Assembly: GCA_038087875.1 (NCBI GenBank)
Contig: CM075994.1
Location: forward strand, 1,490,001-1,554,000
Source: Malacoraja senta
Lineage: Eukaryota
Length of the DNA: 64,000 nucleotides
Reading direction: 5' to 3'
The position numbers and the translations under genes were made by a program. The first letter of the stretch is position 1; every line of letters starts with the position of its first letter. Positions 2,164 to 62,544 of the stretch are shown in pieces. The notes under the pieces were generated by a model, which was not told the DNA's origin, ran no database searches, and saw only the letters and a list, made by a program, of their open reading frames with translations.

Positions 2164-3239
2164 ATTTATTAGAATTGTATTGGGTAGTGTTCAGAATTAT
2201 CTTTATACCCGGCCCCCGTGCCACTCATGAGACCCCCTGGGCTAAAATCCCTTTCCTCATTTGAGGGGCGTCTCACCCCTCGCCGCGACTACTCCTCCCA
2301 CACAACCCCCTTCGCACTCCCTCTTCCGGCCACCACGCAATCCCCGCCTCCACTAACCTCCGCTAGCTCATTGACAGCAGCATGTGGACAGCTCTTCACC
2401 CACAGGTACCTCCCGTCGCCCCACCCGCTCCATTCAACATTTCTGCCGAAATAAAACTTAGGTAGCTGTTAACCCTTGGACTCTATTAACTTCACCACTA
2501 GCTTCCATCCATTCAGTAACAAAGTGGCTTGTCCAACCTTGGCCTCGGCCTTCATTTGCTCTCCTCCTACTCCGCCATCGCTCAAGTTTAACGAACCGTC
2601 GATCTCCACATTGACGGTGCACTGGCCCATCCACCGTTACCTGTAGCAGAGAAGTCCTGGAAAGCACGTCTTGGCGATTCACGGATTTTTCTGCATTGTT
2701 AGTTTAGTTTAGAGATACCGCCAGATAGTCAAGATACTCCATTGATAGACACAAAATGATGGAGTAATTCAGCGGGACGCAGCATTTCCGGATAAAAGGA
2801 TTGGGTGACGTTTCGTGTCGAGACCCTTCTTCACCAATGTTTCTCTCCAGAGATGTTGCTTGTCGCGCTGCCTGCTGCATGTTCGCATTACATCATCTCC
2901 CTCTCTCACACTTTAAACTAATATCCGCTGCTGTTTGAATCCCAGACCCTGAAAAAGACTGCGTGCATTCACCTATCACAGCCCCTCGTGGACTTGTATA
3001 CGTCCATAACATCTACACTCCGATTCCCATAGCTTTTGTCCACTATCTTGAACCGCTGTTGATACCAAGGGTTGGATACATTCACGACGCAGATAGGATT
3101 ACAGGATTCCTGGTATGAACAAAATAGTACTTTGAATCTGTATTCACCCTGGAGAAGGGTGTGGAATCTGGAGAGGGGGCGGTGAAACGTGGAACATATC
3201 ATCCATAATGGACAGGATATTGGCTATTTTAGCAGAGTA

Positions 3240-3545
3240 AATTTAGTTTAGAGATACGGCGTGGCAATAGGCCCTGCGGACCACCAAATGCATGCCGGTC
3301 ATCGAACACCCGTCCATTAGCTCTATATTATCCAACTTTCACATCCATTCTTGCACATTTGCGGCAAGTATACAGAGGCAATTTTCCATTAATCCGCGTC
3401 ATCTTTGGCATGTGGGAGGAACACGGAGCACCCGTTGGAAAACCACACGGTCACTGGGAGAACATGCAAACTCAACACAGGCAATACCTGAGGTCAAAAG
3501 CGAACCCGGGTCGAGGCAGCTCTACCAGCTACGCCACTGTCTCGC
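3240..3545 (-). mobile_element. tRNA-derived V-SINE (HE1-like)
   Basis: Reverse complement of the SINE consensus found throughout the window (tRNA-like head, V-domain, ..GTATCTCTAAACTAAA tail). Confidence 0.75.
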
Positions 3546-3671
3546 CCTTAAATGTGGATAAATCCGCAGGCACGCCTGAGATGTATCCCCAAGTTGCTAA
3601 TGGAGGGGGCATAGATGGATATTATTCGGGGCCTAATAAATATCTTTGTTGTTCACGATTGACAGGGCACA

Positions 3672-3965
3672 GGGCGGCACGGTGGTGCAGCTGGTAGGGT
3701 TGCTTACAGCGGCGAAAATCCGAGTTCGATTCTGACCACGGCTGCTGTCTGTTCGGAGTTGGTGCCGCATGGGTTTTCTCAGGGCGCTCCGATTTCCTCC
3801 CACACTCCAAATACGTGCAGGATTGTAGGTTAATTGGCTTCGGTAATGTTGTAAATTGTCACTAGTGCGTCTAGACTAATGTTAATGTGCTGGGACCGCT
3901 GGGCGGCGCGGACTCTGTGGGTCGAAGGACCTGTTTCCGCTGTGTATCTCTAAACTAATCTAAAC
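3672..3965 (+). mobile_element. tRNA-derived V-SINE (HE1-like)
   Basis: GGCGGCACGGTGGTGCAGCTGGTAG head, B-box GAGTTCGATTC, V-domain-like core, tail CTGTGTATCTCTAAACTAA. Confidence 0.85.
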
Positions 3966-4829
3966 ACTGTTAAAATACCGCACGACGGACAGAGTAAATG
4001 AAGTAACTTTATTCAAGAAGAACAGCAGACAACAGGCAGGTCATTACAGAGCAGTGAATCTAACATCAGTGGCACGGGCGTTCTTAGTAAAGCTTCTGAG
4101 AGAAACAATTAATTCACACTTGGAAAACCAATGAATAGCTGAGCATTGCGTCGTTGGGGTGGAAGATCCTGCTTTGCAGGCTCTTCGGTTCAACTTGCCC
4201 ACACCGGCAAACATGTCCCAGGCAAGTTGAGCCGGAGGGCCTGTTACCACGCTGAACGAGTCTGTGATATACTTGCCAACACCAGCTGCGGCATAGAACA
4301 TGAAATCAGTGATGGTATGGTGCAATATCATAAACCACTGAGTTCGAAGAAGGGTCTCGACTCGAAATGTTACCTTTTCCTTCTACCCAGAGACGCTGCC
4401 TGTTCCAGTGAGTTTCCCAGCATTTTGTGTCCATCTTCGGTGTAAATCAGCATCCGCAGTTCCTTCCCCAACATTCATAAAATATTGCTTAGCTCACAGT
4501 TGCTGAGTGTACAGTTCTGGTCAATATAACCGTAAAAAGTACATGTTTGCAAATTAAAGAATGTCTAGATGATTCAACCGTTTATGTGATGGAACAACTA
4601 GATCAGAAGGAGAGACTCAATAGGATTGGATACCTGTAGATGCTGAGGCGGAATCTGGTCGATCTTCGCAACATTTTGGTGGGTGTTGGTGGTGTTTAAC
4701 TGGAAAATGAGGATAATAATGTTACAGTCCCGATATTCATTAACGACCCAAACCAAGTCCTTTGTCGTGTTTCATGGTGACTTGTGTCAAGGTCGCGCTT
4801 TATTTTGAGATATGTTGTCACCTACCCCA

Positions 4830-5330
4830 TTCCTGTTCAGAAAGGCCACACATCTTTACTCAGTCCGCCTTGGTCTAATCAATCTCCCGGTTGCCAAATA
4901 CATTAATCCCCCTCCCATTCCCATACTGACCATTCTATCCTGGGTCTCCTCCACTGTCAGAGTGAGGGCAAATGCAAATAGGAGGAACAGCACCTCATAT
5001 TTCACTCGGGTAGCTTATAACCTAGCGATATGAATATTCAATTCTCTAACTTCAAGTAACCCCTGCTTCCCCTCTCTCTGTGCCCCCATCCCACACGTTA
5101 TCACCTTCTCCACAGTCAACAATGAACCAACGTGGGCTCCACCGTTCCATGATCACCGTTGCTGGCTTTGATTTGTCCTTTTCAATACCTGTTATTCATA
5201 TTTTCTCTGTTCCTTTTCCTATCTATCGTTTCCCTATCGCCTGACTTCTAGTCTGAAGAAGGGTCTCGACCTGAAACGTCGGCGAGCTGCCGGACTCGCT
5301 GAGTTACTCCAAATTTTTGTGTCTATCAGA
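4830..5330 (+). mobile_element. Penelope-like element 3' fragment (GIY-YIG end plus hammerhead-like motif)
   Basis: GAGGAACAGCACCTCATATTTCACTCGGGTAGCTTA (EEQHLIF..GSL) matches the end of the 19519-20976 ORF. CTGAAGAAGGGTCTCGACCTGAAACGTC at 5253-5280. Confidence 0.75.
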
Positions 5331-9253: not shown

Positions 9254-9323
9254 ATGAAACAACCGGTAATAATTCAGCTAGAAAACATTTACTATCCGAT
9301 CCTTGCTATCATCGGCGTTCCTG
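9254..9323 (+). CDS. GPR139/GPR142-like GPCR, coding exon 1
   Basis: ATG at 9254 reads MKQPVIIQLENIYYPILAIIGVP+g, followed by a GTAAG donor at 9324. The phase-1 join to the acceptor at 16259 completes TM1 (GVP-ANMVAILIL). Confidence 0.9.
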
Positions 9324-9469
9324 GTAAGCCGTTTATTATCATCTGTTAATCTTTTCGTTGTGTAGTACTGTGTTGTTAAGTGCAAGTGTATTCTTAATTG
9401 TCTGTTGGATTTAGTATTGGCAGCCAAATACTAATCGACATGTAACGAGCGAAAATAGCGTCCATCGTG

Positions 9470-9750
9470 TTTCTTTTAGAGGTACAACGTGGAAACAGGC
9501 CCTCGGGCCCACCGAGTACGCGCCGACAAACCATCATCCGTACGCGCGTTCTGTCCTACATATCAGGGATAATTTACAGAAGCCAATTTACCTCCCAACC
9601 CGCAGGTCTTTGGAATGTGGGAAGAAACCGGAGAACCGGAAGGAAACCCACAGTCACAGGGAGAAGTAATAACCTCCAGACTGAGAGCACTCGAGTTCAT
9701 GGTCGAACCCGCGTATCTGGAGCCGCGAGACGGCATCTCTGCCAGCTCAC
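9470..9750 (-). mobile_element. V-SINE (HE1-like)
   Basis: Reverse-orientation match to the SINE consensus. Confidence 0.7.
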
Positions 9751-9984
9751 TACTTTAATCTAGAAACCAGTGCGACTAACAATTTAAACCCCTCATTACA
9801 ACGTGATCCCCAAATGTGTTCATTGCTTCTCGCTCTGAAGTCTGTGTCTGTATCTGGAGCAGATTTTTTTTTTACACAAAGGGCGGTGTGTACCTGGATT
9901 GCACTGGAAGTTGTGGTGACGGAGGCAGATGCAGCAGTGGCATTGATAAGTCTTTTAGTCTGAAGAAGGGTCTGGACCAGAAAT

Positions 9985-11305
9985 TCTTTCTGGAATTTTT
10001 TGACGATGTAACTAGGAAAATGGACAAGGGGGAGCCAGTGGATGCATTGTATCTGGACTTTCAGAAAGTATTTGATAAAGTCCCACATAGGAGATTAGTG
10101 GGCAAAATTAGGGCACATGGTATTGGGGGTAGAGTGCTGACATGGATACAAAATTGGTTGGCGGACAGGAAACAAAGAGTAGGGTTTAACGTTTCCCTTT
10201 CAGAATGGCAGGCAATGACTCTTGGGGTACCGCAAGGTGCTGGGACCGCAGCTATTTCAGATTCAGATTCAGATTCAGAAAACTTTATTGTCTGTCGTAA
10301 CAGAAAATCTTCTTTGGCGATATATGTTAATGATTTAGATGAAGGGATTACAAGTAACATTAACAAATTTGCAGATGACACAAAGCTGGGTGGCAGTGTG
10401 AACTGTGAGGAGGATGTTATGCGAATGCAGGGTTACTTGGACAGATTGGGTGAGTGGGCAGACGCATGGCAGATGCAGTTTAATGTGGATAAATGTGTGG
10501 TTCTCCACTTTGGTAGCAAAAACAGGGAGGAAGATTATTATCTAAATGGTGTCAAGTTGGGAAAAGGGAAAGTACAACGGGATCTGGGGCTCCTTGTTCT
10601 TCAGTCTATGAAAGAAAGCATGCAGGTACAGCAGGCAGTGATGAAAGCGAACGGCATGTTGGCCTTCATAACAAGTGGAGTTGAGTATAGGAGCAAAGAG
10701 GTCCTTCTTTGTACATGCAGCTGTACAGGGCCCTAGTGCGACCACACCTGGAGTATTGTGTGCAGTTTAGTCTCCAAATTTGGGGAAGGACATTCTTGCT
10801 ATTGAGGGAATGCAGCGTAGGTTCACAAGCTTAATTCCCGGGATGGCGGGACTGTCATGTGCTAAGAGAATTGAGCGGTTCGGCTTGTATACTCTGGGAT
10901 TTAGAAAGATGAGAGGGGATCTTACTGAAATATATAAGACTATTAAGGGTTTGGACACGCTAGACGCAGGAAACATGTTCCCGATGTTGGCCGAGTCCAG
11001 AACCAGGGGTCACAGTTTAAGAATAAGGGGCAAGCCATTTAGAACGGAGATGACGAAACACTTTTTCACACAGACAGTTGTGAGTCTGTGGAATTCTCTG
11101 CCTCAGAGGGCGGTGGAGGCCGGTTCTCTGGAAACTTTCAACAGAGAGCTAGATAGGGCTTACAAATAACGGATTCAGGGGATATGGGGAGAAGGCAGGA
11201 ACATAATACTGATTGTGGATGATCAACCATGATCACATTGAATGGCGGTGCTGGCTTGAAGGGCCGTATGGCCTACTCCTTTACATATTTTCTATTATCT
11301 ATTGT
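9985..11305 (+). mobile_element. CR1 LINE fragment in the GPCR intron
   Basis: ORFs 9816-10736 and 10780-11169 contain YLDFQKVFDKVPH, YVNDL, NKFADDTK and SRTRGH. A small (TTCAGA)n-containing insert sits at ~10256-10320. Confidence 0.92.
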
Positions 11306-11522
11306 CACCAATTCGTTTTCTCCAGAGATGCTGCCTGACCCGGTGAGTTTCTCCAGCTTTGTATGTCTATTTTGTGTCTGTTTTAGATATGCACACGGAT
11401 ATGGTGAGAATGAAGAGAAATGGTCACTTGCAGGCAGAGAGGAATAATTTAGCTTGGAATAATTTATCATGTTCGGCATGGACATCGTGGGCCAAATGGT
11501 CTATTCATGTCCTGTACCGTTC

Positions 11523-12335
11523 CATAGAAACATAGAAACATAGAAAATAGGTGCAGGAGTAGGCCATTCGGCCCTTCGAGCCTGCACCGCCATTCAATAT
11601 GATCATCGCTGATCATCCAACTCAGTATCCTGTACCTGCTTTCTCTCCATACCCCCTGATCCCTTTAGCCGCAAGGGCCACATCTAACTCCCTCTTAAAT
11701 ATAGCCAATGAACTGGCCTCAACTACCTTCTGTGGCAGAGAATTCCAGAGATTCACCACTCTCTGTGTGAAAAATGTTTTCCTCTTCTCGGTCCTAAAAG
11801 ATTTCCCCCTTATCCTTAAACTGTGACCCCTTGTTCTGGACTTCCCCAACATCGGGAACAATCTTCCTGCATCTAGCCTGTCCAACCCCTTAAGAATTTT
11901 GTACGTTTCTCTATGAACCCGCCTCAATCTTCTAAATTCTAGCGAGTACAAATCGAGTCTATCCAGTCTTTCTTCATATGAAAGTCCTGACATCCCAAAA
12001 ATCAGTCTGGTGAACCTTCTCTGTACTCCCTCTATGGCAAGAATGTCTTTCCTCAGTTTGGAGACCAAATCTCTACGCAATACTCCAGGTGTGGTCTCAC
12101 CAAGACCCTGTACAACTGCACTAGAACCTCCCTGCTCCTATACTCAAATCCTTTTGCTATGAATGCTAACATACCATTCGCCTTCTTCACTGCCTGCTGC
12201 ACCTGCATGCCTACTTTTAATGACTGGTGTACCATGACACCCAGGTCTCGTTGCATCTCCCCTTTTCCTAATCGGCCACCATTCAGATAATATTCTACTT
12301 TCCTGTTTTTGCCACCAAAGTGGATAACCTCACAT
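11523..12335 (-). mobile_element. CR1 LINE 3' fragment
   Basis: ORFs 11622-12080 and 12053-12256 closely resemble the 6631-8770 and 60705-62520 copies. (CATAGAAA)n tail. Confidence 0.93.
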
Positions 12336-13049
12336 ATACCATCAGTGTGTCCATATACCTGGCTGCTGTCTGTACGGAGTTTGTACGTTCACACCGTGAC
12401 CTGCGTGTTTTTTTCCGGTCATTCAGGTTGCCACCCACACCCCAAAGACGTACAGGTTTGTAGGTTGATTGGTTTTAGTGAAATTGGACGTTGTTCTTAG
12501 TGTGTAGGATTGTTCTAGTGTACGCTGTGATTGTGAAAAGTGCGGATTTCATGAACCGAAAGCCCCATTTCCGTGCTGAATAGCTAAAGTCTACAGTCTA
12601 AACGGGTGATCAGCTGTAAGCCGATATGTTTTCCCATCGAACATGAATTATAATGCGAGCGATATTTAGAACAGGGAAATGCATATCAGGGGAACTGCGG
12701 CTGGACTGCTGGAGGGTGTCTGGGTCAATATCGACCTCTGCACCTGTTTGTGTGGAGTTCATCAATTCTCCACGTAACCGCGCGGATTTCCTCTCTGCGC
12801 TGCGGTTTCCTCTCAAATGCCTAATCTGAGGTGTCGGTTGGTTAACACCCACTATAAATTGCTCATTGCATGCAGGAGACTGGGAGGATCAGGAAGAAGT
12901 GAAGGAAATCGGGAGGAAAATATCATGTGGCAAATTCGTGAGTAAACGCGCTTTGAGACGGCATAAATTAGACGGACTGAAATGGCCATTAAATCTCCAG
13001 GGGACATTTCATCCCATTCCTCATCAGCCAATTTCGGTTTTACGATAAA

Positions 13050-13360
13050 GGTGGCACGGAGGCGCAGCGGTTATTTACTGCCTTACCCTGCCACAGACCC
13101 AGGTTCGATCCTCAGCAGGGCTGCTGCGTTCACGAGTTTAGACGTTCCTTCCGTGACCTGCGTGGGTTTTCCCAGGGAGCTCCGGCTTCATTTCACATTC
13201 CAAAGACGTACAGGTTTGTTGGTTCATTCCCTTGGTAAAATTATAAATCGTCCCCAGTGTGTGTGTTGAGTAGTGTCGGTGTGCGGGGATCGCTGGACGG
13301 CGGCGACTCGGTGGGCCGAAAGGCCTGTTTCCGCGCTCTAGCTCCAAACAAAACTAAACA
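13050..13360 (+). mobile_element. V-SINE (HE1-like)
   Basis: GGTGGCACGGAGGCGCAGCGG head, GGTTCGATCC B-box, consensus body and tail. Confidence 0.8.
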
Positions 13361-14107
13361 AAGCTGATAAAACATCATTAGTTTGAAGAAGTGTCCAGAC
13401 CCGAAACATCGTCTCTCCATTTCCCTCCACAAAAGCTGCCTGCCTGTTGAGTCCATCCAACACTTTGTACTTCGCTCAACGTCCCGTTCTGCAGTCCCGT
13501 AATTGGATCTGCAGTCTCTCGTGTCTCGTAGAATATTTAGAGTCCACGGTTTGCACAAGAAGGAACTGCAGACGCCGGCTTACACCGGATAAAGAGACAA
13601 CATTCTGGATCAACAGGTGCAGAGGCAGCAACCCTGGATAGAAGGAAAGGATGACACTCCGGATCGATCCCCCTGCATCTTGCACAGTCTGAGGATGGGT
13701 CTTGTCCCGAGGCATGATCGATTCCTTCTATCCAGGGATGCTGCCTGCCCCGCTGAGTTACTCCAACATTTTGTGTCTTTCCCGGGTTTGTTCACGTAGC
13801 TCTTGGAATAAGTGATCTGGCGGTACACTCGGTAAGTCAGGGCATCTAAGGACAGAACCAATTCAGTGGGCGAGCGACAATCCCCATGAATTAGCTTTAT
13901 TAGCCGGATATTTTTTTAGGGTTTCGGCGGGAGAACTTTGGCAGTAAGAAAATAGAATGACATTATCCTTCCACGTTCCACCACCGCCCTCAAGAACCCC
14001 TTGGATGTCCAATTTCGCCAATCTATTCCCATTGACTCTTGCGATAGACGCATGACTAGAGACCCCCTCCATTTCATTCTAAAACTCGCCCTCTCATTTA
14101 TCGAGGC

Positions 14108-14400
14108 TTAGTTTAGTGTAGTTTAGACATACAGCACGGATACCGGCCGTTCGGCCCACCGAACCCGCGCCGATCATTGATCACACCGTACACTAGCGCT
14201 ATCCTACGCACTAGGGACACATTGCAATCTTTACCGAAGCCAAATTAAGTTGCAAACCGCAAGTCTTTGGAGTGTGGGAGGAGACCGGAGGTCCCGGAGA
14301 AAACTCACGCAGGTCAGGGGGAGAAGGTACAAACGCCATACGACAGGATATAACCCGGTTCCCTGGCGCTGTAAGGCAGCAACTCTAAAGCTCTGCCGCC
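14108..14400 (-). mobile_element. V-SINE (HE1-like)
   Basis: Reverse-orientation match to the SINE consensus. Confidence 0.8.
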
Positions 14401-15908
14401 CGTAATTAGATTTGGGGCATCTTGAAATACACCAGTGACAAGGTTAGGATTATTCATGGATGGAAAAGCATATTTCGGCAGACACTCATTACGGACGGAT
14501 TCTCGTCACATGTAACGGAATTTATAGGATGAATATGCAGTTTATTTTCCCACGGTATGGGAATAAAAAAACCAGAAGACTTCGCTTTAAGGTGAGAGGT
14601 GAATGAGTTAAAAAGACCCTAAGGGGATTTTTTTCACTCAGAGGATCGAACGAGCTGCCAGAGGAAGTTGTTGAGGGAGGTACAATAAGAACATGTAAAA
14701 TACATTTGGACAGGTACATGCATAGGTAATTAATAGATGAACATAGGCCAAACGCAGGCGTGGGACTAGCTCATATGGAGTATCTTGGTTGGCATAGACG
14801 AGTGAGGCCGATGGGCTTGTTTCGTTGTCGTGTGACACCATAACTCCCTGACATTTGACCCGGAGCACATTTTGACTGCATTTTATCTAAAAAGCGTATT
14901 TGCTTGTGAAGTGACAGAAGTGTTATACCGCAAGGCGCGGTTCTGGAGAGTGGTTACAAAAGGTCCCCTTTCTTGGTGCTCCACATTCCACTCTGGTCAA
15001 TGACATAAGAATCACAATGCACAATATGCTACAGACCTGATTAGGTTATAACACAAAGTGAGATACGAGGACCGACACAAAATTTTGGAGTAATTCAGCA
15101 GGTCAGGCAGCATCTCTGGAGAAAAAGAATACGTGACGTTTTGGTCGAGACCCTTCTTCTGAGAGTCAGCGGTAGGGGAAGGGAGATGTATGGACGTTTG
15201 CAGAAAACAACGATAATCAAGGCCACAGGCTCCGAAAAACAGGACGTGCCTTTAGAAGCAAGGAGCGGAGGAATTCCTTTAGTCTGGGGGTGGTGAATCT
15301 GTGGAATTCATTGCCACCGTCGGCTGTGTAGGCCAAGACAATTACTATCGTTTTAAGGCGGAATTCGGGATGACGGGCCGAAAGCAGGAGAATTGGGTTG
15401 AATGGGATCGAGCTCTAAACAAGGGATATGGGGAGAAGGCAGAAATTGAATACTAATTGTGGATGATCAGCCAGGATCACATTGAATGGCGGTGCTGGCT
15501 AGAATGGCCGAAAGGCCTACTCCTGCATATAGTTTATATGTTTCTATGAGAGGGAAAGATAGATCCGCCATGATTCAATGGCGCAGTAGATTGAATGGAT
15601 AGAATGACCGGATACGGGTCCAAGAAAGTATGAACAGCATAGCGGACTATAGGTGAAGTGTAAAGCCAGTGAGAGGGATATAGGTGGGGTGAGAGAGGAG
15701 CGTAGTTGGTAAGAGGGGCGGGATAGTGGGCGAATTGAATGATAAATGGGTGGGCACGTGGTTGTAGCGGAGTACAAGAGAGAGGGGGGAAGGGGGGTAT
15801 TAGTTAAAAGTACAGTGATCAATGTTCATACGTTATCTGTTGGATCGTATGGCAAAGCGATATTTGGTCCAAAACTTATCCTTTTCGCAAAATCTGTCAG
15901 ATTAACTT

Positions 15909-16205
15909 CGGCGGCACGGTGGCGTAGCGGTAGGATTGCTGCTTTACAGTGCAAGAGACCCGGGTTCCATCGTGACTGCTCCGTCTGTACGGAGTTTGTA
16001 CTTTTCCTCTGTGATCGCATGGATTTTCTCCGGGTGTTCTGGTTTCCTCTCGGAACCCCAAAACGTGCAGGTCTGTAGATTAATTGGCTTCTGTAAATTG
16101 GCTCTAGTGTGTCGGATAGAACTACCGTGAACCGGTGATCGTTGGTCGGCGAGGACTCGGTGGGCCCAAGGTCCCGTTTCCAAGCTGTATCTCGAAACTA
16201 AACTT
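15909..16205 (+). mobile_element. V-SINE (HE1-like), ending ~55 nt upstream of the GPCR exon 2 acceptor
   Basis: GGCGGCACGGTGGCGTAGCGGTAG head, consensus body, AAACTAAAC tail. Confidence 0.85.
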
Positions 16206-16259
16206 CCTGCAAGACCAAAGACCGATAGCAAAGTAATTTTAATTTCGTCTTTTCTACAG

Positions 16260-17152
16260 CTAACATGGTGGCAATCCTCATTCTCTCCCGAGGAAAGTGC
16301 GGTCTCTCCAAATGTATCACCCGCTACCTGGTATCCATGGCCGTGGGTGACTTAATGGTTCTGATTTTCGAGGTAATTCTGTACGAGATTAAAGATGGCT
16401 ATTTCCCCAATTCATTTCTGAACTTAACTCCCGTTTGTAGCGTCAACTTGACCCTGCTTTTTATGTCCATTGATTGCTCTGTCTGGCTAACGGTAACTTT
16501 CACCTTCGATCGATTTGTTGCTATTTGTTGTCCAAAGTTACGAGGAAGATATTGCACTGAGAAAACGGCGACTTTGGTGATAGCAATTGTGTGTTCCCTG
16601 AGTGTTATTGAAAATATACCAATGTATTTTATCTACGCACCACGAGAAATCATTGACAACGTGGCTTGGTCCTGTGGCGTAACCCCAGACTTCTACACCT
16701 CGCCGTTATGGGTAGCATTTTCGTCGTTCAAAACTATTTTAACCCCATTTACACCATTTTTACTGATCATGCTCCTCAACGCCCTGACAATCAGACACAT
16801 TATAGGCGCCAACAGAGTGAGGAGCGGTCTCCGAGCGAACAAGAAGGACGAGAGCGGCGCAGATCAAGAGGTGGAGAATAGAAGAAAATCCATCATTCTA
16901 TTGCTGGCCGTATCCGGCAGTTTCGTCCTACTGTGGATGGTATTATCCGTGTGCTTCATTATCGTACACTTCCTAGACGTTCAGTTTTTAGCAACAGATT
17001 ACGACGACCCTTTTACCGTTGCAGAACAGTCCGGATACATGCTGAGGTGTCTGAGTGCTTGCACCAACACGTTTATTTACGCCGTGTCACAGACGAAATT
17101 CAGGGAAGAATTAAAAATCCTGGTTATGGGGTCCATGCGGGTTCTAGTCTAA
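16260..17152 (+). CDS. GPR139/GPR142-like GPCR, coding exon 2 (TM1-TM7; 320 aa with exon 1)
   Basis: Polypyrimidine tract plus CAG acceptor ending at 16259. Open frame with RYLVSMAVGDL (TM2), SVWLTVTFTFDRFVAICCP (TM3), RRKSIILL (TM6) and NTFIY (TM7), ending at TAA 17150-17152. These are hallmarks of the GPR139/142 group. Confidence 0.92.
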
Positions 17153-19308: not shown

Positions 19309-21267
19309 GGTACACAAAAATGCTGGAGAAACTCAGCGGGTGCAGCAGCATCTATGGAGCGAAGGAAATAGGTAACGTTTCGGGCCGAAACCCTTCTTCA
19401 GACTGATAGGGGGTGGGGAGAAGAAAGGAAAAAAGGAAAAAGGCGGAGGAGGAGCCCGAGGGCTGGGGGAGGGGAGGAGACAACCAGATGGCTGATGAAG
19501 GGGAGGGGACAGCAAGGGCTAGCAGAATTGGGAGAATTCAATGTTCAGGCCACCAGGATGTAGACTGCCCAAGCGGAATATGAGGTGCATTTCCTCCAAT
19601 TTACGATGTTGCTCGCTGTGGCCATGGAGGAGACCCAGGACAGAGAGGTCAGATACGGAATGGGAGGGGGAGTTGAAGTGCTGAGCCACCGGGAGTTCAG
19701 GTTGGTTATTGCGGACCGACCAGAGGTGTTCGGCGAAACGATCGCCAAGCCTCCGCTTGATCTCACCGATGTAGATCCGCTGGCATCTAGAGCAGCGAAT
19801 GCAATAGATGAGGTTGGAGGAGATGCAGGTGAACCTCTGTCGCACCTGGAACGACTGCTTGGGTCCTTGAATGGAGTGGAGGGGGGAGGTGAAGGGACAA
19901 GTGTTGCATCTCTTGCGGTTGCAAGGGAAAGTACCAGGGGAGGGGGTGGTATGGGAGGGAAGGGAAGAATTGACAAGGGAGTTACGGAGGGAGCGGTCTT
20001 TGCGGAAGGCAGACATGGGGGGAGATGGGAAGATGTGGCGAGTGGTGGGGTCACGTTGGAGGTGGCGAAACTGACGGAGGATCACTTGTTGTATGTGACG
20101 GCTGGTGGGGTGAAAGGTGAGGACTAGGGGGACTCTGCCTTTGTTGTGAGTGGGGGGATGGGGAGAGAGAGCAGTGTTGCGGGGTATGGCAGAGACCCTG
20201 GTGCGAGCCTCATCTATGGTGGAGGAGGGAAACCCCCGTTCCCTGAAGAATGAGGACATTTCAGATGCCCTGGTGTGGAACGCCTCATCCTGGGAGCAGA
20301 TGCGGCGTAGACGGAGGAATTGGGAGTGGGGGATGGAGTCCTTACAGGAAGCAGGGTGGGAAGAAGTGTAGTCCAGATAGCCATGGGAGTCGGTAGGTTT
20401 GTAGTGGATGTCGGTAAGGAGTCTATCACCTGCGATGGAGATAGTGAGGTCAAGGAATGGTAGGGAAGTGTCGGAAATGGTCCAGGTGTATTTGAGTGCC
20501 GGATGGAAGTTGGTGGTGAAGCGGATGAAGTCAGTCAGTTGTGTGTGGGTGCAGGATGTGCCACCAAAACAATCATCGATGTAGCGGAGGTAGAGGTCGG
20601 GGATGGGGCCCTGGTACGCATTGGACAAGGATTGTTCTACGTACCCGACAAAGAGGCAGGCGTAGCTGGGGCCCATGCGGGTGCCCATAGCTACGCATTG
20701 TATTTGGAGGAAATGGGAGGAGTCAAATGAAAAGTTATTAAGTGTAAGTACCAGCTCCGCTAGGCGGAGGAGGGTGTCAGTGGCCGGGTATAGATTGCTT
20801 CTCCGGTCGAGGAAAAAACGGAGGGCTTCGAGACCATCCTGGTGGGGGATGGAGGTGTACAGTGACTGGACGTCCATGGTGAAGATGAGGGGGTGAGGGC
20901 CTAGAGAGTGGAATGCGCGGAGATGACGGAGAGTGTCTGAGGTGTCTTGAACATAGGTAGGGAGGGATTTAACCAAGGGGGATAGGATGGAGTCGACGTA
21001 GGTGGAGATGAGTTCGGTGGGGCAAGAACAGGCAGAGACAATGGGTCTACCGGGACAGTCAGGTTTGTGGATTTTGGGGAGAAGGTAAAAGCGGGCTGTG
21101 CGGGGCTGGGGAACAATGAGGTTGGAGGCTCGTTCGGGCAGGGCGTGGGAGTGGATGAAGTCGGTGATGGTGCTGGAGATGGTGGCCTGGTGCTCGTCAG
21201 TGGGGTCATGGTCCAGGGGTAAGTAGGAGGAGGTGTCCGAGAGTTGGCGCGTGGCCTCAGCTTTGTA
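19309..21267 (-). mobile_element. Penelope-like retroelement, 5'-truncated (RT plus GIY-YIG endonuclease)
   Basis: The 485-aa ORF 19519-20976 has MDVQSLYTSIP, AMGTRMGP, RYIDDCF, PFLDL and SNLIYCIRC..YIGE..RFAEH (GIY-YIG). The 3' region carries a hammerhead-like motif at 19374-19401. Confidence 0.95.
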
Positions 21268-23172: not shown

Positions 23173-23184
23173 AATATTCTGCTT

Positions 23185-26505: not shown

Positions 26506-26859
26506 CCTATGGAGTTCTTTTCCTCCATTAATATACTAAAGAATTTCTTCCATATTTAGTTAACTTATCTTTAAAAGGCTTGCGAAAACGTAACAATGTC
26601 CACATCCCATGGGAACTCCACCATTTTCATCTCACTGTTTGCAGTAAGTTTCCCAATCCCACCCAGCACCTCTCAAAGGCCTGGATTGGGAAAAAGGGAG
26701 GAGAATGGTATTAGGATGGTGAGATAGATCAGCCATGATTAAATGGTGGAGTTGACTTGATGGGCTGAATGGCCTAATTCTGCTCCCAGCATTTCTGACC
26801 TGATGACCACCCATTGCACCTGTACCTCTCACACAGGCCTCTCCCAATACAACAATAGT

Positions 26860-31820: not shown

Positions 31821-32209
31821 TGGGTAGGTGTGAAGTCAGATCGGGCCAATCTTTAGGCTTTTACTTTCAACTGATAGCAACCATCTTGACTTCTCTACTC
31901 CCCCTACCCACTCCAATCTCACCCCCTCTGAACGCACAGCCCTCGGCTCACTCAGTAACAATCCCAACATTGTTATTAATAGGGCCAACAAGGGAGGTGC
32001 GGTTGTTGTCTGGCAACTGACCCCACTATGCAGAGACCATAACCCCACAGAAAAACATATCTCAATCTAAGATATCTGAAGAAGAGTCCCAACCCCAAAC
32101 CTTCACCTAACCATGTTCTCCAGATATGCTGCGTGACCCATTGCTTTACTCCAGCACTTTGTGCCTTCTTTTTTAAAACAAGCATCTGCAGTTCCTTGTT
32201 TCTACAGTA

Positions 32210-37179: not shown

Positions 37180-37810
37180 AGAAATAAGGAAATGCAGATG
37201 CTGGTTTACAAAAAAAAGACAGAAAATGCTCGAGAAACTCAGCAGGACAGGCAGCATCACTGGGTTGCCCCTCCTCCCCCCCCCCCCCCTCCTGTAACCC
37301 CCTTCTCACCTGAATCCACCTATTACTTGTCAGGCTTTGTCCTGCCCCTCCTCTCTTCCAGCTTTCTTTTCACACAACGTGCTGGAGTAACTCTGCAGGT
37401 CAGGCAGCATCTGTGGAGAAATAGGATGGGTGACGTTTCTTCAGACTGAAAGTAGTGGTGAGTGGAACTAGAGGTAGGAAAAGGCCTGAACAAAGCAGGG
37501 CCGACAACAGATGACCAAGGACGGATGGAGTCCTTAATGGCCCATTGTTGACTGGGGAAGAGGTAATAACGAAGGGATACAGGGATGCGAACAGTGGAAC
37601 TGGTAGGATGTCTAACGTGGGAGGGGGTGAAAAAAGGGAATGCAGGGGTTACTTGAAATTAGAGAAATCTACGTTCAATCCACTGGGTTGTAAGCTGCCC
37701 AAGTGAAATATGAGGTGCTGTTTGTTTGTGGCCACATTCTGACAGTGGAGGAGGCCCAGGACACAAAGGTTAGAATGGGAAGGGGAGTTAAAATGTTTGG
37801 CAACTAGGAG
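37180..37810 (-). mobile_element. Penelope-like 3' fragments
   Basis: TGTAAGCTGCCCAAGTGAAATATGAGGTGCTG block plus the conserved GCTGGAGTAACTC..GGCAGCATC block. Confidence 0.7.
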
Positions 37811-38233
37811 ATTGCGTCTATTTGTATATTTAAAAAACTAGTCAATAAGTGAAGCAGACTCGATGGACCAAGCAGCCTAATTCTGCTCCTATGTCTTATG
37901 GTCTTTTGAGCTGTAGCTTATTGCTGGAAATTCTTCTGCTTGCTTGTTGAGGTGGTTTCTAATGGATACCAACCAGCAGATAATAAATCGTTGCCTGTGT
38001 GCCAAGAATTAGAAAAGTTGTCTATACTTTTAATTCAGCATTAAAGTGTGACATGTGAATGAAGACATCAGCTGAATTCTTTGAAGATAGTTATGCTTCA
38101 AGGATTGGAATAGTGCCTCTCCTGACTACCGGCTCAAGATATGGGGGTGCAAATAGACACAAACTGAAGATAGACACAAAATGCCGGGGTAACTCAGCAG
38201 GTCAGGCAGCATCTCTGGAGAACATGGATAAGG

Positions 38234-38261
38234 GACGTTTCGGGTCGAGACCCTTCTTCAG
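38234..38261 (-). ncRNA. Minimal type I hammerhead-ribozyme motif (Penelope-associated), best-preserved copy
   Basis: The minus strand reads CTGAAGA-A-GGGT-CTCG-ACCC-GAAA-CGTC: core CUGANGA, 4-bp stem II, GAAA, palindromic ACGU stem III and a GUC triplet. Confidence 0.6.
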
Positions 38262-38323
38262 ACATTTATTCTTCAGACATTTATAAGGTTTAACTGTTTG
38301 TGCAGCCAAGTAAATACATTGCT

Positions 38324-40638: not shown

Positions 40639-41624
40639 AATGATTACAATCAAGCCTTCCACAGTGTACAGATACAGGATAAAGGGAATAACGTTTAGTG
40701 CAAAATAAAGTCCAGTAAAGTCCAATTAAAGATAGTCCATGTGTCTCCAATGAGGTAGATGAGAGGTCAGGGCCAATCTCTAGTTGGTAATAGGATGTTT
40801 CAGTTGCCTGATAACAGTTGGGAAGAAACTGTCCCTGAGTCTGGTGATGTGCGTTTTCACACTTCCATACCTCTTGCCTGATGGGAGCTGGGATAAGAGG
40901 GGGTGAAGCAGGGTGAATTGCATGAACCTGGTTTCCAATAGATGTGTTTTGGCAAAATACCTAAAAGGAAATAATAAGTATGAAGTAAAAAAAAAAAAGA
41001 CAAAGTGCTGGAGTAACTCAGCAGTCAGGTAGCATCTCTGGAGAACAGGTGACATTTTGGGTCAGGACACTTCTTCAAATGTCACCTATCTGCTGCCTGA
41101 CCTGCTGAGTTACTCCAGGACTTTGTGTCCTTTTGTGTAAACCAGCAACTGCAGTTCCTTATTTCTACATAAATGTGAAGTAATTTAGTTTCAAATCCCA
41201 CTTGAGAAAAGTTTACGGAAATACGTTCTGTATATTAACGCAATCCACTATTTATCTTGAAGTAAATATTGTGGCTCTGGATGGTTTAGAAAATATTCTT
41301 GTCCATTTGATAACTTGTTAAATTGTGATGTTCTTTAAAACAAATTATTCTGGAGATACTGAGTAAAAAATGTATTTAGAAGTGGTTTATCAGATGCATG
41401 CAGTTGCAGCAACTGCAAAACGTGTACTCGAATGACCTAGTTGGTAAATTAATTTGTGTGTTTAAACAGCTGTTGATAATGTGTGTATGCAGATGGATGG
41501 AAACCTCAGACACCAGCACGGGCACGGGCTGAAGTTCATTGCATTACATGTTCCACAGTGACCCATGACTGTACTATCTTCGGCTAAAGAACTTACTGAT
41601 CGATATTTATCTGCTGTCACCCAG

Positions 41625-41757
41625 GGGTTCCAATAAGCGAGGCGAGACTTTTGGAATAAGTCGAATCGGTAGCAAGATTAAAGGAGTATTTAAAAGCACG
41701 ACGATGGAAGGAGCCATGTTGCCTAATTACGGAGTGCGGGAAGACGATGATGATTCT
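41625..41757 (+). CDS. SNX14: Sorting nexin 14 exon (RGS-PX linker)
   Basis: AG/GT-bounded; GSNKRGETFGISRIGSKIKGVFKSTTMEGAMLPNYGVREDDDDS matches vertebrate SNX14 as I recall it. Confidence 0.9.
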
Positions 41758-42524
41758 GTGAGTAATGCTGGGTCGTTGGCATCTGATGCTGAAACTGTTT
41801 CGGAGATACAGCGTGGAAACCAGCCCTTCGACCCACCGAGTCCGCGCCATCCAGCAATCACCCGTTCACTAGTTCTATCCATGAGGGACAATTTGCAAAA
41901 GACAATTGGAATGTGGGATGAACCCACATAGTCACGGAGAAAAACCCACATAGTCACGGGGAGAACGTACAAACTATGTACAGGCAGCACCCATAGTCAA
42001 GATCGATCCTGGGTCTTTGGCGTTGTAAAGCAGCAACTCTACCGCTGCGCCATTGTGCTGCTCATTTTTCAGGTTTTATTTGTGCATTTTGGTATTTCTA
42101 AACTAAACAAAGAGAAGAAATACTTTATAGTAAATACACACATGCTTTATAGTAAATACCCACATGATATTGTCAAATAGAAACGTACTGTGGCTTCCCA
42201 CGTTCAAAAGATAATGATATCATATGCTATTAAAATGGATTTGATTCCCGAATGGATCTGACGCCATGTGCAAATGTATAATCATTGATACTGTAATTTG
42301 TATTGAAGTTGTAGTGTTAGTGTTCAACTGTTATTGGAAATCCAAATATTCTCCGATCTAAAAAGTAGAAGTTGTCAAACCTCTCTCCTCTAGAGGGCTC
42401 TCCCGCACAAGTGTTCCTCCTTGGTGTTCCTCTGCCATGATAAGCTTTCTTTAACATTGCTTGTGTGATAATATTGTTTTCTTTATCGCAGCAAAGGGTT
42501 TATACCTCTTACTGACGCCATCAG

Positions 42525-43258
42525 GGGCCGCCGCACAATGGCAGCCTCGCCAACGGTCTGTCTGTCTTTTCGTCTTTTTATTGTTATTTGTAGTGTGTTT
42601 TAAAAGTTTGTGTTATTGTTCTTAGGTTTGTTTTATGAGGGCGTTGGGAGAAACATTTTTTCAATCTCTTACCTTGCTGGAGATGCGATTGTTTTCCGGA
42701 TCGTATCTCCGCTCGCTCTGCGGCCTAACATCATGGAGCTGGAGGCCTTGCTCTGGACTGACTTTGAGCCCCACCGTGGGGTCGTGGACTTGCCATCGGA
42801 GCCGATCCCTTGACTGGGATAGACACTCCAACCGCGGCCTGCGGATTTCACCATCGAGGAACTCGCAGTCTCGGGTAGAGACCGATGTCGGGAAGCTCCA
42901 AACGACGCAGAAGGTTTCGACCAGCCCCGACCCAGGGGAGATTATCTTCCCCCCAATGCAGGAGCTTGATCGCCCCGAGGCAAAGGCTCAAATGCCACCG
43001 GCTACGGGAGCCAAGATCGGCCCATCAACGGAAGGCTCAAGGCCCCTGACCGCGGGAGACCAAAGAAAGGAAGAGATTTAGCTTTTTTTTGCCTTCCATC
43101 ACAGTGAGGAATGTGGAGGAGTCACTGTGGTGGGTGTTTATGTTAAAATGTATTTTGTGTGTTCTGTTGCTTTTTATTGGTATGACTGTCTCGCAAATCA
43201 AATTCCTCGTATGTTGCAAAACATACTTAGCTAATTAAGTATGATTATGATGATGATT
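42525..43258 (+). mobile_element. GC-rich non-coding interspersed element related to 21872-22565
   Basis: Shares 5' and 3' blocks with 21872-22565 and ends in a (TGA/TGATTA)n tail. Confidence 0.6.
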
Positions 43259-44458
43259 TGCTTCTCTAATTTCCTTCTAAAGGTCTGGACTCCAGGGATA
43301 AGATTGCACTGACCTGTAGATCCCTCCCTGGTTCCATGCATGTGCTAAAACAGGGATGGATGGCTGTATATTCCACAGGAGTGAGGGTAACACAGAGCCT
43401 GGCCTGAAACCTACTGGTCACTTCCCAGAAATGCCATGAATAGCCATATTGAGCATGAACTTGTGCTGACCTTTCTTTCATTTCAAGATCCGGTACCTTT
43501 GATGTCACCTGTATAACTCATTCATACTTGCTTGGAAAATTCTCTTGAACAGCATATCATAACCTGTTGAACCAGTGGGAAGCCGCAGTACATTTCTATT
43601 CAGCAATATTATGTATATTTGAATGTGGTTATTTGCCATGAATCATTTCATCTTTGTTTATTTTTAGTTTTGGTGATGCAATGTGGAAACAGGCCCTTCA
43701 GCCCACGGAGTCCGTGGCGACCAACGATCACCCACACGCCAGTTCTATCCTACACACTGGGGGCAATTTACCCACAAACCTGTGCGTATTTGGAATATGG
43801 GAGGAAACGGGGGCACCCAGAGAAAACCCATGTGGTCACAGGGCAAACGTACAAACTCTGTACAGACAGCACCCGAGGTCGGGATCGAACCTGTGTCTGG
43901 CACTGTAAGGCAGCAACTTTACTGCTGTAACACCATGCCGTTTAGTTTAGAGATACAATTTGGAAACAGGCCCTTTGTCTCACCAAGTCCACGCTGACCA
44001 TCAATCACCCATTCACACTAGTTCTATGTTATCCCACTTTCTCATCCACTCACTGCACATTATGGGGCATTTTTTACTGAAACCAATTAACCATCTTTTG
44101 GATGTGGGAGGAAATGGGAGCACCCAGAGAAAATCCAGGGGAAATCCAAAATTACAGGGAGAACATGCAAACTCCACACAGACGGCACCCAGTGTAGGGA
44201 TCAAACCTACGTCTCTGGTGGCAGCTGTGCCACACTTTTATAATTTCCTAACTTCTGCCATGATATCACAATGTTCGTATTTTCTAGGAGCTAAATTGAC
44301 CATTTGTCCCATCAAGTCAATCATGACTGCTCTATCTTTCCCTGTCAACCCCGTTCTCCGGATATTTACCCGGCATGTTTTTGATGTGGACGTTGATATT
44401 TGGTGGTGATTGTGCCCCAGTGAATGATTGACACTTCCTTCATCCCTCTCGGTTGCAG

Positions 44459-44642
44459 GTGGAAGAGGCAACAGTGGTGTCAGAGGACGATTTACTGGAA
44501 GAACTGGCAATAACTCCCAACGCTCACCGCAACCTCTCTGAATGGAAAATAACCATTCCATATGTAGACTTTTTCTTTGACAACAAAAAAGAGAAAGTTC
44601 CAGTCTTCTGTATCGATGTTGAACGGAATGATGAAGGGTCAG
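44459..44642 (+). CDS. SNX14: Sorting nexin 14 exon (start of PX domain)
   Basis: [56 protein letters not shown]; phase 0 to 1. Confidence 0.92.
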
Positions 44643-45639
44643 GTAAGTTTAGACTTTTTAAACTTTAGAGATACTGCGGAGATACTTCAGCCCACCAAGT
44701 CGGCGCTGACCAGCGATTATCCCGTACACCAGCACTACGCTACACAGGGGTGGTGGGTCTGTACTGGCAAATTGGCAATGATCAGAACAGCCTCACCACC
44801 TTACAATGTGAAACCAGTGAGAACAAATCTCTCGGAGTAACTCAGCGGGTCAGCCAGCATCTCCAGAGAACATGGATAGGTGATGTTTTGGGTCTTTCCA
44901 TGTTCTCCACAGATGGTGTCTGACCCGCTGAGTTACTCTGGCACTTGGAGTCTTTTTTTGTAAACCAGCATTTGCAGTTCCTTGCATCTACAACAAATTT
45001 TCTGGTTGGTTCACAGTGACAGACTTTCAATTGTACATAATAAAACCTTTTGACAGAAACTTAATTTAATAGGATAGAGGATTTGGAATGGAGTGAATTT
45101 GCTGACTGCACTGTTGCAATTATTATAATCGAACTGCGGCCCTGATCATAAATTAGTCTTGGGGGAGCAACCAGAATTGGAATAGAGCTGAAGAGGAATA
45201 TAGACCAGTGAAGCACAGGAACAGGCCCTTCGTCCACAATATCTGTGCCACACATGATGCCAAGACTTTAGACGTGAGAGACACAGCATGGAAACAGTTC
45301 CCCTAGCCCAACAAGTCTGCACCAACCAGCGATCACCCCGTACACTAGATCTATCCTACACACTAGGGACAATTTTACGGAAGCCAATTAACCTATAAAC
45401 CTGTATTAGGAGTGTGGAAGAAAACCCTCGCGGTCACAGGGAGAACATACAAACTCCATACAGACAGCACCCATAGTCAGGATCGAACCTGGGTCTCTGG
45501 CGCAGTAAGGCAGCAACTCTTCTGCGGCGCCACCATGGCTGAAGACCAATTCTTCAGGAAGTAGAACAAAATGCTGGCTTACACAAAAGAACAAAATGCT
45601 AGGGTAACTCAGTGTGTCAGGCAGCACCTGTAGAGACAA

Positions 45640-46390
45640 TAGGCATAGGAGTAGGGCATTCGGCCATTCGAGCCAGCTCAGCGCTCATGGCTGATCATCC
45701 ACAATCAGTACCTCGTTCCTGCCTTCTCCCCATATCCCTTGACTCCGCTATCTTTAAGAACTCCATCTAACTCTCTTGAAAGTATCCAGAGAATCGGCCT
45801 CCACTGCCTTCTGAGGCAGAGAATTCCACAGATTCACAACTCTCTGGGTGAAAATGTTTTTCCTCATCTCCATTCTAAATAGCTTGCCCCTTATTCTTAA
45901 ACTGTAGCCCCTGGTTCTGCACTCCTCCAACATCGGGAACATGTTTCCCGCCTCTAGCGAGTCCAATCCCTTAATAATCTTATAGGTTTCAATAAGATTC
46001 CCTCTCATCCTTCTAGATTCCAGTGTATACAAGCCCAGTCGCTCCATTCTTTCAACATATGACAGTTCAGCCATCCCGGGAATTAACCTCGTGAACCTAC
46101 GCTGTACTCCCTCAATAGCAAGAATATCCTTCCTCAAATTTGGAGACCAAAACTGCACACAATACTCCAGGTGTGGTCTCACCAGGGCCCTGTACAACTG
46201 CGGAAGGACCTCTTTGCTCCTATACTCAACTCCTCTTTTTACAAAGGCCAATATGCCATTAGCTTTCTTCACTGCCTGCTGTACCTGTATGCTTACTTTC
46301 AGTGACTGATGTACAAGGACACCCAGGTCCCGTTGTACTTCCCCTTTTCCTAACTTGACACCATTCAGATAATCTGCCTTCCTGTTCATG
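45640..46390 (-). mobile_element. CR1 3' fragment in an snx14 intron
   Basis: ORF 45754-46464 contains LYRALVRPHLEYCVQFWSP.. Confidence 0.92.
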
Positions 46391-46572
46391 CCGTAGATTA
46401 ACGTAGATAGGTGACGTATTGGGTCGAGACCCTTCTTCAGACAGGAAGTGATGAAGCTGTACATCCGTGACCTTTTTGCTCGATCTCCGGTGTCAATGAA
46501 GCAGCTTTAATTATATCCACAAGAATTTGAATGAACTTATTGGTGGACACTGCCTTTCTTTTTTATTTTCAG

Positions 46573-62520: not shown

Positions 62521-62544
62521 TGCATGATTACAATGTGTTTACAT

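Follow-up and report, generated by a model that had tools for sequence, protein, structure and literature searches.

A minimal hammerhead ribozyme motif recurs throughout a 64,000 nt stretch of the genome of the cartilaginous fish Malacoraja senta (assembly GCA_038087875.1, contig CM075994.1, positions 1,490,001-1,554,000, forward strand; hereafter the window), and it probably belongs to the terminal repeat of a Neptune-type Penelope family whose dispersed copies are 3′-anchored ends, likely written by the family's own reverse transcriptase (RT) and endonuclease and likely decayed without selection since. Most of the scattered copies are broken; they are likely inert insertion leftovers and not functional ribozymes or a new kind of element. 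This explanation rests on the position of the motif behind an open reading frame (ORF), on 3′ ends common to the copies, with a tail in some, on 5′ ends that vary, on head-to-head pairs and on core nucleotides lost from 32 of 35 pieces (Table 1).

The initial annotation had named six copies of the motif, whose letters, coordinates and strands were all verified, down to the U-G pair of helix II at 19374-19401, and seven decayed sites, at each of which (15135 and 26111 included) the motif is present whole or in part. It was right about the recurrence but counted too few copies: a terminus profile found 35 pieces in the window at E<0.01 and 38 at E<=1, compared with a single match (E 0.18) in the reversed control, and a longer terminus profile found 36 at E<=0.05. 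These 35-36 pieces represent about 28 insertions in 64 kb, which bears out the very high copy density claimed, and the terminal sequence makes up about 5% of the window. A hammerhead descriptor gave five matches compared with a mean of 0.29 (maximum 2) in 100 Markov-simulated windows, and the exact pattern gave three compared with none in 100 shuffles; the motif is thus commoner than chance predicts. Some individual calls needed correction. The copy at 38234-38261, described as complete, has an intact core but not a single helix I pair, and the positions and strands of three variants are right, but 46413-46440 has lost GAAA, the helix III palindrome of 25918-25945 is broken and helix II of 23042-23069 forms only three of four pairs. 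Many copies are indeed short ends without coding sequence, but 5253, 23042, 25918 and 26111, besides 19374, have Penelope endonuclease-coding sequence upstream.

Table 1 Features in the window (positions in nt from its first letter)
Position	Strand	Feature	Basis or remark
9254..17152	+	Host gene 1: rhodopsin-family GPCR with two exons, 320 aa in frame	exons 9254-9323, 16260-17152
41623..63898	+	Host gene 2: sorting nexin 14 (SNX14), ten exons	residues about 487-875
19519..21270	-	5′-truncated Neptune-type Penelope ORF, 583 aa: RT (YIDD), CX4CX2C linker, GIY-YIG-type endonuclease	motifs, homologues
19403..19522	-	Pyrimidine-rich spacer from stop codon to ribozyme, ending in YAG; candidate intron, GT donor missing in this copy	splicing inferred
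19374..19401	-	Minimal hammerhead with intact core, helix II of 4 bp (one U-G), palindromic strand of helix III, GUU triplet and helix I of 2 bp	
19309..19373	-	Conserved block at 3′ end of Penelope element, predicted to form 6-8 bp hairpin	short end without tail
4839..5328	+	Endonuclease stub, 196-nt GT-AG spacer, intact core (5253-5280), terminal block deleted	
22718..23173	+	Endonuclease stub, 192-nt GT-AG spacer, ribozyme 23042-23069 (3/4 pairs in helix II), terminus with tail	
25817..26095	-	Endonuclease end, 104-nt GT-AG spacer, ribozyme 25918-25945 with broken palindrome, tail	directly adjoins cut end of 26112 copy
26112..26529	-	Endonuclease stub, spacer, ribozyme 5′ half	
37372..37822	-	Endonuclease stub, GT-AG spacer of about 207 nt, ribozyme lacking helix II	
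38148..38268	-	Short terminal copy from ribozyme 5′ edge; core 38234-38261 intact, no helix I pair	5′ junction carries 15-nt duplication
4338..4468	+	Short terminal copy with tail, from ribozyme 5′ edge, core mutated	
13377..13468	+	Short terminal copy from ribozyme 5′ edge, core mutated	
15066..15205	-	Terminal copy including about 45 nt of spacer; mutated core	
27486..27604	-	Terminal copy including about 20 nt of spacer; mutated core	
2735..2870	.	Head-to-head pair of termini	
13551..13794	.	Head-to-head pair, one arm tailed	GPCR intron
40990..41168	.	Head-to-head pair, one arm tailed	8-nt direct repeat on both sides (40981, 41176)
44823..44992	.	Head-to-head pair, one arm tailed	SNX14 intron
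51530..51735	.	Head-to-head pair, one arm tailed	SNX14 intron
51929..52130	.	Head-to-head pair	SNX14 intron
9956..11396	+	Terminus divided by CR1 LINE piece	halves 9956-9984, 11303-11396
45569..46445	-	Terminus divided by CR1 LINE piece	halves 46406-46445 (has 46413 motif), 45569-45639
31873..32206	+	RT N-terminal region fragment joined to tailed terminus	
53582..54035	-	RT fragment	one terminus nested (53730-53837), another joined to end (53582-53652)

The motif follows the stop codon of a Neptune-type ORF at a distance of about 120 nt; this ORF encodes RT and, at its C-terminal end, a GIY-YIG endonuclease. Homologues of 890-930 aa align to this ORF from their residue about 310-340 onward, and several homologues carry PF01541; the window ORF itself matched RVT_1 alone in Pfam, below the cut-off. 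Judged by its CX2-5CxxC linker (residues 450-458) and endonuclease motifs, of which the linker is also common to Nematis, the element appears to be a Neptune-type Penelope. Its order of RT, linker and C-terminal GIY-YIG is that described for endonuclease-bearing (EN+) Penelope-like elements (PLEs) of the Neptune clade (Craig et al. 2021, PMC8557442), for which heavy 5′ truncation, inverted 5′ copies and a 30-40 bp tail on one end are likewise described; unlike in that clade, a full-length or tandem copy is absent from the 64-kb window.

All dispersed copies have common 3′ ends, with or without a tail of 35-40 nt, and vary in 5′ extent. Six of the 28 insertions are collinear with endonuclease coding sequence, two termini are interrupted by CR1, and six head-to-head pairs of termini occur, with the tail on one arm in four of them, an arrangement known from PLEs (PMC8557442, PMC3846280). 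Along the ORF the summed contig depth, which does not equal copy number, drops from 3′ to 5′ in both DNA contig sets (rho -0.85 and -0.83; 4.4- and 6.1-fold). By analogy with PLE biochemistry (PMC11167929), the element protein would nick DNA and prime reverse transcription at either of two positions a little downstream of the ribozyme, so that every insertion would begin with the terminal block and then the ribozyme, and most reverse transcription would stop early and leave short ends. In the Anolis Poseidon element PAc (Frangieh et al. 2024, PMC11167929), which belongs to a different clade, two 3′ ends likewise follow shortly after the ribozyme.

Core, helix II, palindrome and location behind the ORF agree with the original identification of a minimal type I hammerhead of a Penelope-like element. 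The CUGANGA and GAAA boxes with NUH are present in the majority of the family, the extra nucleotide after A9 is A in 19/22 copies, the closing pair G10.1-C11.1 of helix II keeps G in 21/22 and C in 22/25, and the palindromic 15-16 strand without loop 3 reads ACGU in the majority and is CpG-decayed in many copies. The PLE minimal hammerheads described by Cervera and De la Pena 2014 (PMC4209133) share the type I core, the extra nucleotide between 9 and 10.1, G10.1-C11.1, the palindromic 15.2-16.2 without loop 3 and the site in a terminal repeat (pseudo-LTR), and they too occur mostly as single dispersed motifs, attributed there to truncated elements, and in close opposite-strand pairs. They differ in helix II, which has 4 bp here and 7-8 in Schistosoma, and in helix I, which has 2 bp here (as in D. 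virilis) instead of the usual 4-5; cartilaginous fish are not among the hosts named in that survey's main account.

Core, helix II and palindrome are all kept in three of the 35 pieces only. Helix I does not exceed 2 bp in any of the 35 (2 bp in the majority, 0-2 bp in intact copies; 71% of cells paired), and its pair probability was <=0.002 in all six folded sequences. G12 decays like other CpG sites (kept in 15/25 copies compared with 120/167 at the other CpG columns). An excess of core conservation, the check proposed at the outset, appeared relative to the whole 60-nt flank at the level of cells (p=0.022; p=0.105 per column), which counts against the preferred explanation, but not relative to the downstream block (205/227 core compared with 817/923 block non-CpG cells, p=0.48). 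Within the window, no double-sided change was found in 17 pairs over 18 copies, and a search of Rfam returned no hammerhead among seven matches at E<=5. Together with the marginal helix I and a 5′ edge whose letters read both as a YAG acceptor and as a presumably initiator-like TCAGT, these results speak for a hammerhead look-alike kept for another reason, for example as promoter, splice acceptor or protein-binding site. We regard such a look-alike as very improbable in view of the related elements. Among 127 related motifs from metagenome contigs, 33 share the core and follow a related endonuclease; at position 17, 123/125 have a letter other than G. In the proposed stem II covariation test, which counted only positions left free by the search pattern, helix II was paired in 18 of 22 sequence clusters compared with 10.2 in shuffles, and the helix I positions were paired in 18, 19 and 16 of the 22 (shuffles 11.9, 10.3 and 8.4; slid controls 1, 8 and 10). 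The Anolis PLE ribozyme, moreover, cleaves and shows C3/G8 rescue (PMC11167929). Covariation across related elements shows that the fold is under selection in master lineages. Under the preferred explanation this selection would act in master lineages only, where a tandem precursor would cleave as a dimer via the ACGU palindrome, probably only with the help of the element protein because helix I has 2 bp; lone copies would not be expected to cleave host transcripts to any useful degree.

The spacer between stop codon and ribozyme contains a pyrimidine tract and forms a candidate GT-AG intron whose 3′ end falls exactly at helix I, with a GT donor in 4/7 endonuclease-linked copies and YAG directly before helix I in 5/6 of those in which the ribozyme start is preserved. 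A gene model from a ray (P0027) departs from the element frame at the predicted donor; no joint matching the candidate intron was present among the 15 listed of 469 joints in RNA, the acceptor-peptide search gave no match, and the intron-like stretch is missing from all 127 related motifs examined. The 5′-UTR intron described for Drosophila virilis Penelope (PMC2377424; PMC4209133) is likewise an intron-like stretch of terminal repeat that abuts helix I with its 3′ end and is retained in genomic copies, but it measures 75 nt, whereas the candidate here has 104-207 nt, is unalignable between subfamilies and has a putative donor that overlaps the stop codon.

Ten of the 28 short arms start within 6 nt of the ribozyme 5′ edge, at -4 to +1 of C3 (assigned by hand), and 18 elsewhere, a pile-up that simple random truncation does not explain (p=1e-6; p=0.003 if 15 nt of unrecognisable spacer are allowed) and that counts against the preferred explanation. 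The same applies to a sequence subfamily in which upstream element sequence occurs in 0/10 pieces, compared with 7/15 in the other (p=0.02), and to the terminal 70 nt, whose contig depth is 5.6- and 10-fold higher than that of the ORF 3′ end in the two DNA contig sets. The upstream-less label clusters on a weakly supported tree without a starred branch (3 changes compared with 7.0 in shuffles), and the pyrimidine tract upstream is missing in 8/19 arms that include the ribozyme 5′ part. Given the pile-up and the subfamily, a fixed-start short class may therefore exist, and the short non-autonomous derivative envisaged initially is answered in part: most features fit truncated autonomous ends, whereas these two speak for it. 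Such a derivative (about 100-140 nt, ribozyme to tail), split off and trans-mobilised in SINE-like fashion, would explain the subfamily without upstream sequence, and terminal repeats in cis are described as enough for mobilisation (PMC3846280). It seems rather unlikely to us, however, as copies starting at the ribozyme are found in both subfamilies, members of the short one also start further downstream (two adjoin RT fragments), the basis is 64 kb, and run-off of the 5′ repeat of the autonomous mRNA would give the same pile-up without a separate element. More tentatively than for the preferred explanation, we propose that the short copies may be run-off ('strong-stop'-like) cDNAs, for which the Penelope protein would prime internally in the 5′ terminal repeat and copy to the RNA 5′ end at the ribozyme edge, the presumably initiator-like TCAGT doubling as splice acceptor; that one subfamily may be an independent, roughly 140-nt ribozyme-bearing SINE with perhaps 10^5-10^6 copies; and that an intron ending at helix I might let splicing set the ribozyme fold in a vertebrate element.

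The terminal sequence is abundant in RNA, at equal depth on both strands, and no RNA ends pile up at the cut site in either of two runs (poly(A)-selected libraries ill suited to circles, from a related species, about 5-6% of each sampled), as is also the case for Anolis PAc (PMC11167929); this absence says little about self-cleavage. As had been noted, copies lie in introns of both host genes, with six pieces in the GPCR intron and 11 in SNX14 introns; of these 17 of 36 pieces, seven are on the sense strand and none is intact. The co-option of some of them as host ribozymes on GPCR or SNX14 pre-mRNA, which the intronic positions and the abundant RNA might suggest, is hardly credible with 0/17 intact, and the equal depth of both strands fits read-through of dispersed copies. 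The retrozyme-like character first ascribed to the family was not borne out, because tandem arrays, an RNA-end pile-up and intact copies in established introns are all lacking. A retrozyme would consist of ribozyme units in tandem whose transcripts are cut into monomers, made circular and reinserted; the 13 tandem-repeat rows for the window include no array of the terminal unit, same-strand copies with both core halves lie 4.7-13 kb apart, and the ribozyme is minimal, not canonical, without a full helix I. Animal non-LTR retrozymes (PMC7229834; bioRxiv 10.64898/2026.07.22.740005) are similarly short and non-coding, with a type I hammerhead and kinship to PLE terminal repeats, from which they are described as derived, and they occur in the one chondrichthyan sampled in the latter account; they are, however, arranged in tandem, with units of about 150-450 nt that have canonical ribozymes and are expressed as circles, and no such feature is seen here. 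A rare DNA joint from 19372 to 19313, present in both contig sets, might be the junction of a 60-nt tandem that begins close to the cut site, and we nevertheless consider a retrozyme improbable.

In the likeliest case the finding is of little consequence, reports of dispersed minimal hammerheads that stem from truncated Penelope elements going back to 2014, and the family is a rich natural record of PLE integration. If the 5′ pile-up were true genome-wide, it would mark the in vivo ends of template RNAs and identify the template as uncut RNA, not a cleavage product, a result that would bear on the role of the ribozyme in PLEs and on why these elements keep introns.

All six motifs named by the initial annotation, and its decayed sites, are present in the sequence as described. 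A hammerhead descriptor gave 5 matches in the window against 0.29 expected, a profile of the surrounding repeat recovered 35 pieces at E<0.01 (reversed control: 1 weak match) and a longer profile of the terminus, i.e. the ribozyme with its conserved 3′ block, recovered 36. The copies are 70-88% identical (mean 82%) to their own majority sequence. This sequence carries both core boxes together with NUH, a 4-bp helix II with G10.1-C11.1, one additional nucleotide following A9 and, for helix III, a palindromic strand, and fits the minimal motif described by Cervera and De la Pena (PMC4209133), whose supplements may already list the present family. No hammerhead family was among 7 weak Rfam matches in the window, and minimal motifs presumably lie outside the Rfam models.

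The motif belongs to a Penelope-like element (PLE). In the ORF of the long copy, a CX4CX2C linker stands between a reverse transcriptase (RT) and a GIY-YIG-type endonuclease, an arrangement that passages of PMC8557442 give for Neptune and Nematis; compared with full-length relatives the ORF lacks the N-terminal ~310-340 residues, and its named relatives of highest identity come from Mobula (74%), Chiloscyllium, Rhincodon and Hypanus. The ribozyme of this copy lies ~120 nt 3′ of the stop codon and ~65 nt before the element end. All remaining pieces map to this same terminus and have one of two ends, a short one or one extended by a tail of 35-40 nt. Many had been described as free of coding sequence; six pieces are collinear with endonuclease sequence, four of them originally listed without mention of it. 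By hand assignment, 34 arms (single copies of the terminus) represent 28 insertions once head-to-head pairs and two CR1-split termini are merged, the 27486/27898 pair, ~200 nt apart, being kept separate. Six pairs are inverted head to head, and in four of these a single arm carries the tail; such pairs, and shared 3′ ends with an optional tail, are marks of PLE insertions in passages of PMC8557442 and PMC3846280. Target-site duplications were found in 1 of 7 pairs (8 nt) and 1 of 11 single insertions (7 nt); two further candidates of 6-7 nt are weaker and not trusted. In the contig sets of two species, summed contig depth, which does not equal copy number, declines steadily from 3′ to 5′ along the ORF (rho -0.85 and -0.83) and is again 5.6- and 10-fold higher over the last 70 nt, where other subfamilies also feed the terminal bins.

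Features of the window and their coordinates.
Feature	Position	Strand	Remarks
(GT)500 run	994-1994		perfect; possibly an assembly artefact
GPCR gene	9254-17152	+	intact, two exons, rhodopsin-family, 320 aa
CR1 piece	9985-11300		splits a Penelope terminus
Integrase-core Pfam match	18642-19040	-	beside long Penelope copy
Ribozyme of long Penelope copy	19374-19401	-
ORF of long Penelope copy	19519-21270	-	5′-truncated
Weak RT Pfam match	21486-21857	+	beside long Penelope copy, other side
LINE RT	23353-25407
Assembly gap	33618-33817		200 N
Tc1-like transposase fragments	35344-36284	+
SNX14 (sorting nexin 14)	41623-63898	+	ten exons
CR1 piece	45640-46405		splits a Penelope terminus
CR1	60801-62543
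Endonuclease stub	62540-62912	-	full spacer, ribozyme itself deleted

The flanking Pfam matches place the long copy among older retroelement remains. Over its ORF, first-mate minus-strand reads of the sequencing run X21 exceed the others ~1.5- to 6-fold in most bins, which in a library of the usual stranded kind would mean that the element is transcribed in antisense. For the CR1 pieces that split a terminus, a sample of just two, the insertion point lies no more than ~10 nt away from the cleavage triplet. The window also holds a second abundant short interspersed family (repeat families D4, D5, D9-D11 and D14), which we take to be V-SINE/HE1-like. As for the host genes, the GPCR is presumably akin to GPR139-like receptors, which have expanded in cartilaginous fish, and an SNX14 exon has its best named matches in batoids (91%). 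Judged from its proteins, including the relatives of the Penelope ORF, the DNA would come from a cartilaginous fish, most probably a ray or skate. No SNX14 exons for residues before ~487 were found upstream in positions 1-41622; either an intron of >41 kb holds the same-strand GPCR gene, or the assembly gap joins separate regions.

The copies had been called retrozyme-like. Retrozymes, in passages of PMC7229834 and bioRxiv 10.64898/2026.07.22.740005, are tandem units with canonical ribozymes that are expressed as circles, whereas the window contains no tandem array, its same-strand copies with both core halves lie 4.7-13 kb apart, and its ribozymes are of the minimal kind. The copies thus depart from retrozymes in two defining features, and we consider this assignment highly improbable. 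Separately, both contig sets contain a rare DNA joint leading from 19372 back to 19313, which could be a 60-nt tandem junction starting beside the cut site via GTC microhomology, or a strand change.

Within the window, RNAalifold on 18 copies returned no consensus structure, and compensatory changes affected 0 of 17 pairs. Metagenome contigs (10 of 64 parts scanned) yielded at least 127 related motif matches in 121 loci, 33 of the matches with a related endonuclease upstream. Across 22 clusters, which are not phylogenetically independent and one of which comprises 85 matches, the pattern-free positions of helix I pair in 18, 19, 16 and 13 clusters (shuffled means 11.9, 10.3, 8.4 and 8.1) and helix II pairs in 18 (10.2 shuffled), while slid controls were flat. 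Position 17 is non-G in 123 of 125 matches, two having been left out for short flanks. Stem II covariation, put forward initially as a test, is lacking among the window's copies and present between lineages, and pairing at positions not fixed by the pattern shows that the hammerhead fold is under selection in master lineages. In folding predictions the terminal block is no more stable than its shuffled versions (z -0.9 to -1.5), helix I hardly forms, and dimers make contact through helix I or the palindrome of helix II and not in the catalytic fold; folding is thus no guide to activity, for or against. Five related metagenome elements (loci L038, L045, L095, L099 and L120) also have close opposite-strand ribozyme pairs. 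In P0113, a zebra shark gene model, the C-terminus runs through the spacer into residues matching the ribozyme in frame; from the protein alone, sharks would share this layout, with CUGAUGA as the core.

The dispersed copies are decayed. Core, helix II, palindrome and NUH are all kept in only 3 of 35 pieces (at 5253, 19374 and 38234, with 1, 2 and 0 helix I pairs, respectively), none of them among the 17 intronic pieces. G12, which lies in a CpG, is retained in 15 of 25 copies, and the remaining CpG columns do no worse (120/167). Excess conservation of the core over its flanks, proposed initially as a test, depended on the reference: conservation of non-CpG cells is 90.3% for the core, 88.5% for the block downstream of it (p=0.48) and 84.6% for the whole flank, the latter difference holding per cell (p=0.022) and not per column (p=0.105). 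Nor were RNA ends seen to gather at the cut site: in two poly(A) RNA runs of related species, with ~5-6% of each read, which is weak evidence, the terminus was covered equally on both strands and ends piled up nowhere along it. This agrees with the Anolis PLE ribozyme of PMC11167929, which works only with protein, can be done without when insertion is assayed in vitro, and shows no reads ending at its cut.

The stop codon and the ribozyme are separated by a pyrimidine-rich stretch of 104-207 nt that cannot be aligned between subfamilies. It opens with a GT that overlaps the stop codon in 4 of 7 copies and closes, in 5 of 6, with a YAG that abuts helix I, resembling the D. virilis Penelope intron that ends at helix I (passages of PMC4209133 and PMC2377424). 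One ray gene model, P0027, departs from the element frame where the donor is predicted. Of the 15 joints listed among 469, none was a splice joint, an AG precedes helix I in 0 of the 127 related metagenome motifs, and a weak test for use of the predicted acceptor in host gene models gave one candidate and none that scored. Judged from these sequence features, the spacer may be spliced.

Ten of 28 short arms, with 5′ starts assigned by hand and two assignments doubtful, begin at -4 to +1 of core position C3 (p=1e-6; p=0.003 allowing 15 nt of unrecognised spacer), and, of 19 arms that include the 5′ part of the ribozyme, 8 have no pyrimidine tract upstream. There is no comparable excess at the cut site, where, by eye, ~3 of 13 downstream-starting arms begin near +28 to +31, as many as expected or fewer. 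Upstream element sequence accompanies 0 of 10 pieces of one subfamily versus 7 of 15 in the other, the subfamily label clustering on a tree without strongly supported branches. The 5′ pile-up and this subfamily are what survives of the proposed short non-autonomous derivative, and in the window a distinct short element explains them as well as does run-off cDNA primed inside the 5′ repeat of the family's autonomous mRNA. An independent dispersed derivative seems to us unlikely. Our literature search returned no paper that brings non-autonomous Penelope and SINE elements together with sharks and cartilaginous fish; the term 'solo pLTR' does occur, in one paper.

The dispersed copies are probably dead ends of a Neptune-type family. 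The element's protein would prime just downstream of the ribozyme, copying would often terminate early, and cleavage may be dimer- or protein-dependent, taking place in tandem masters only.
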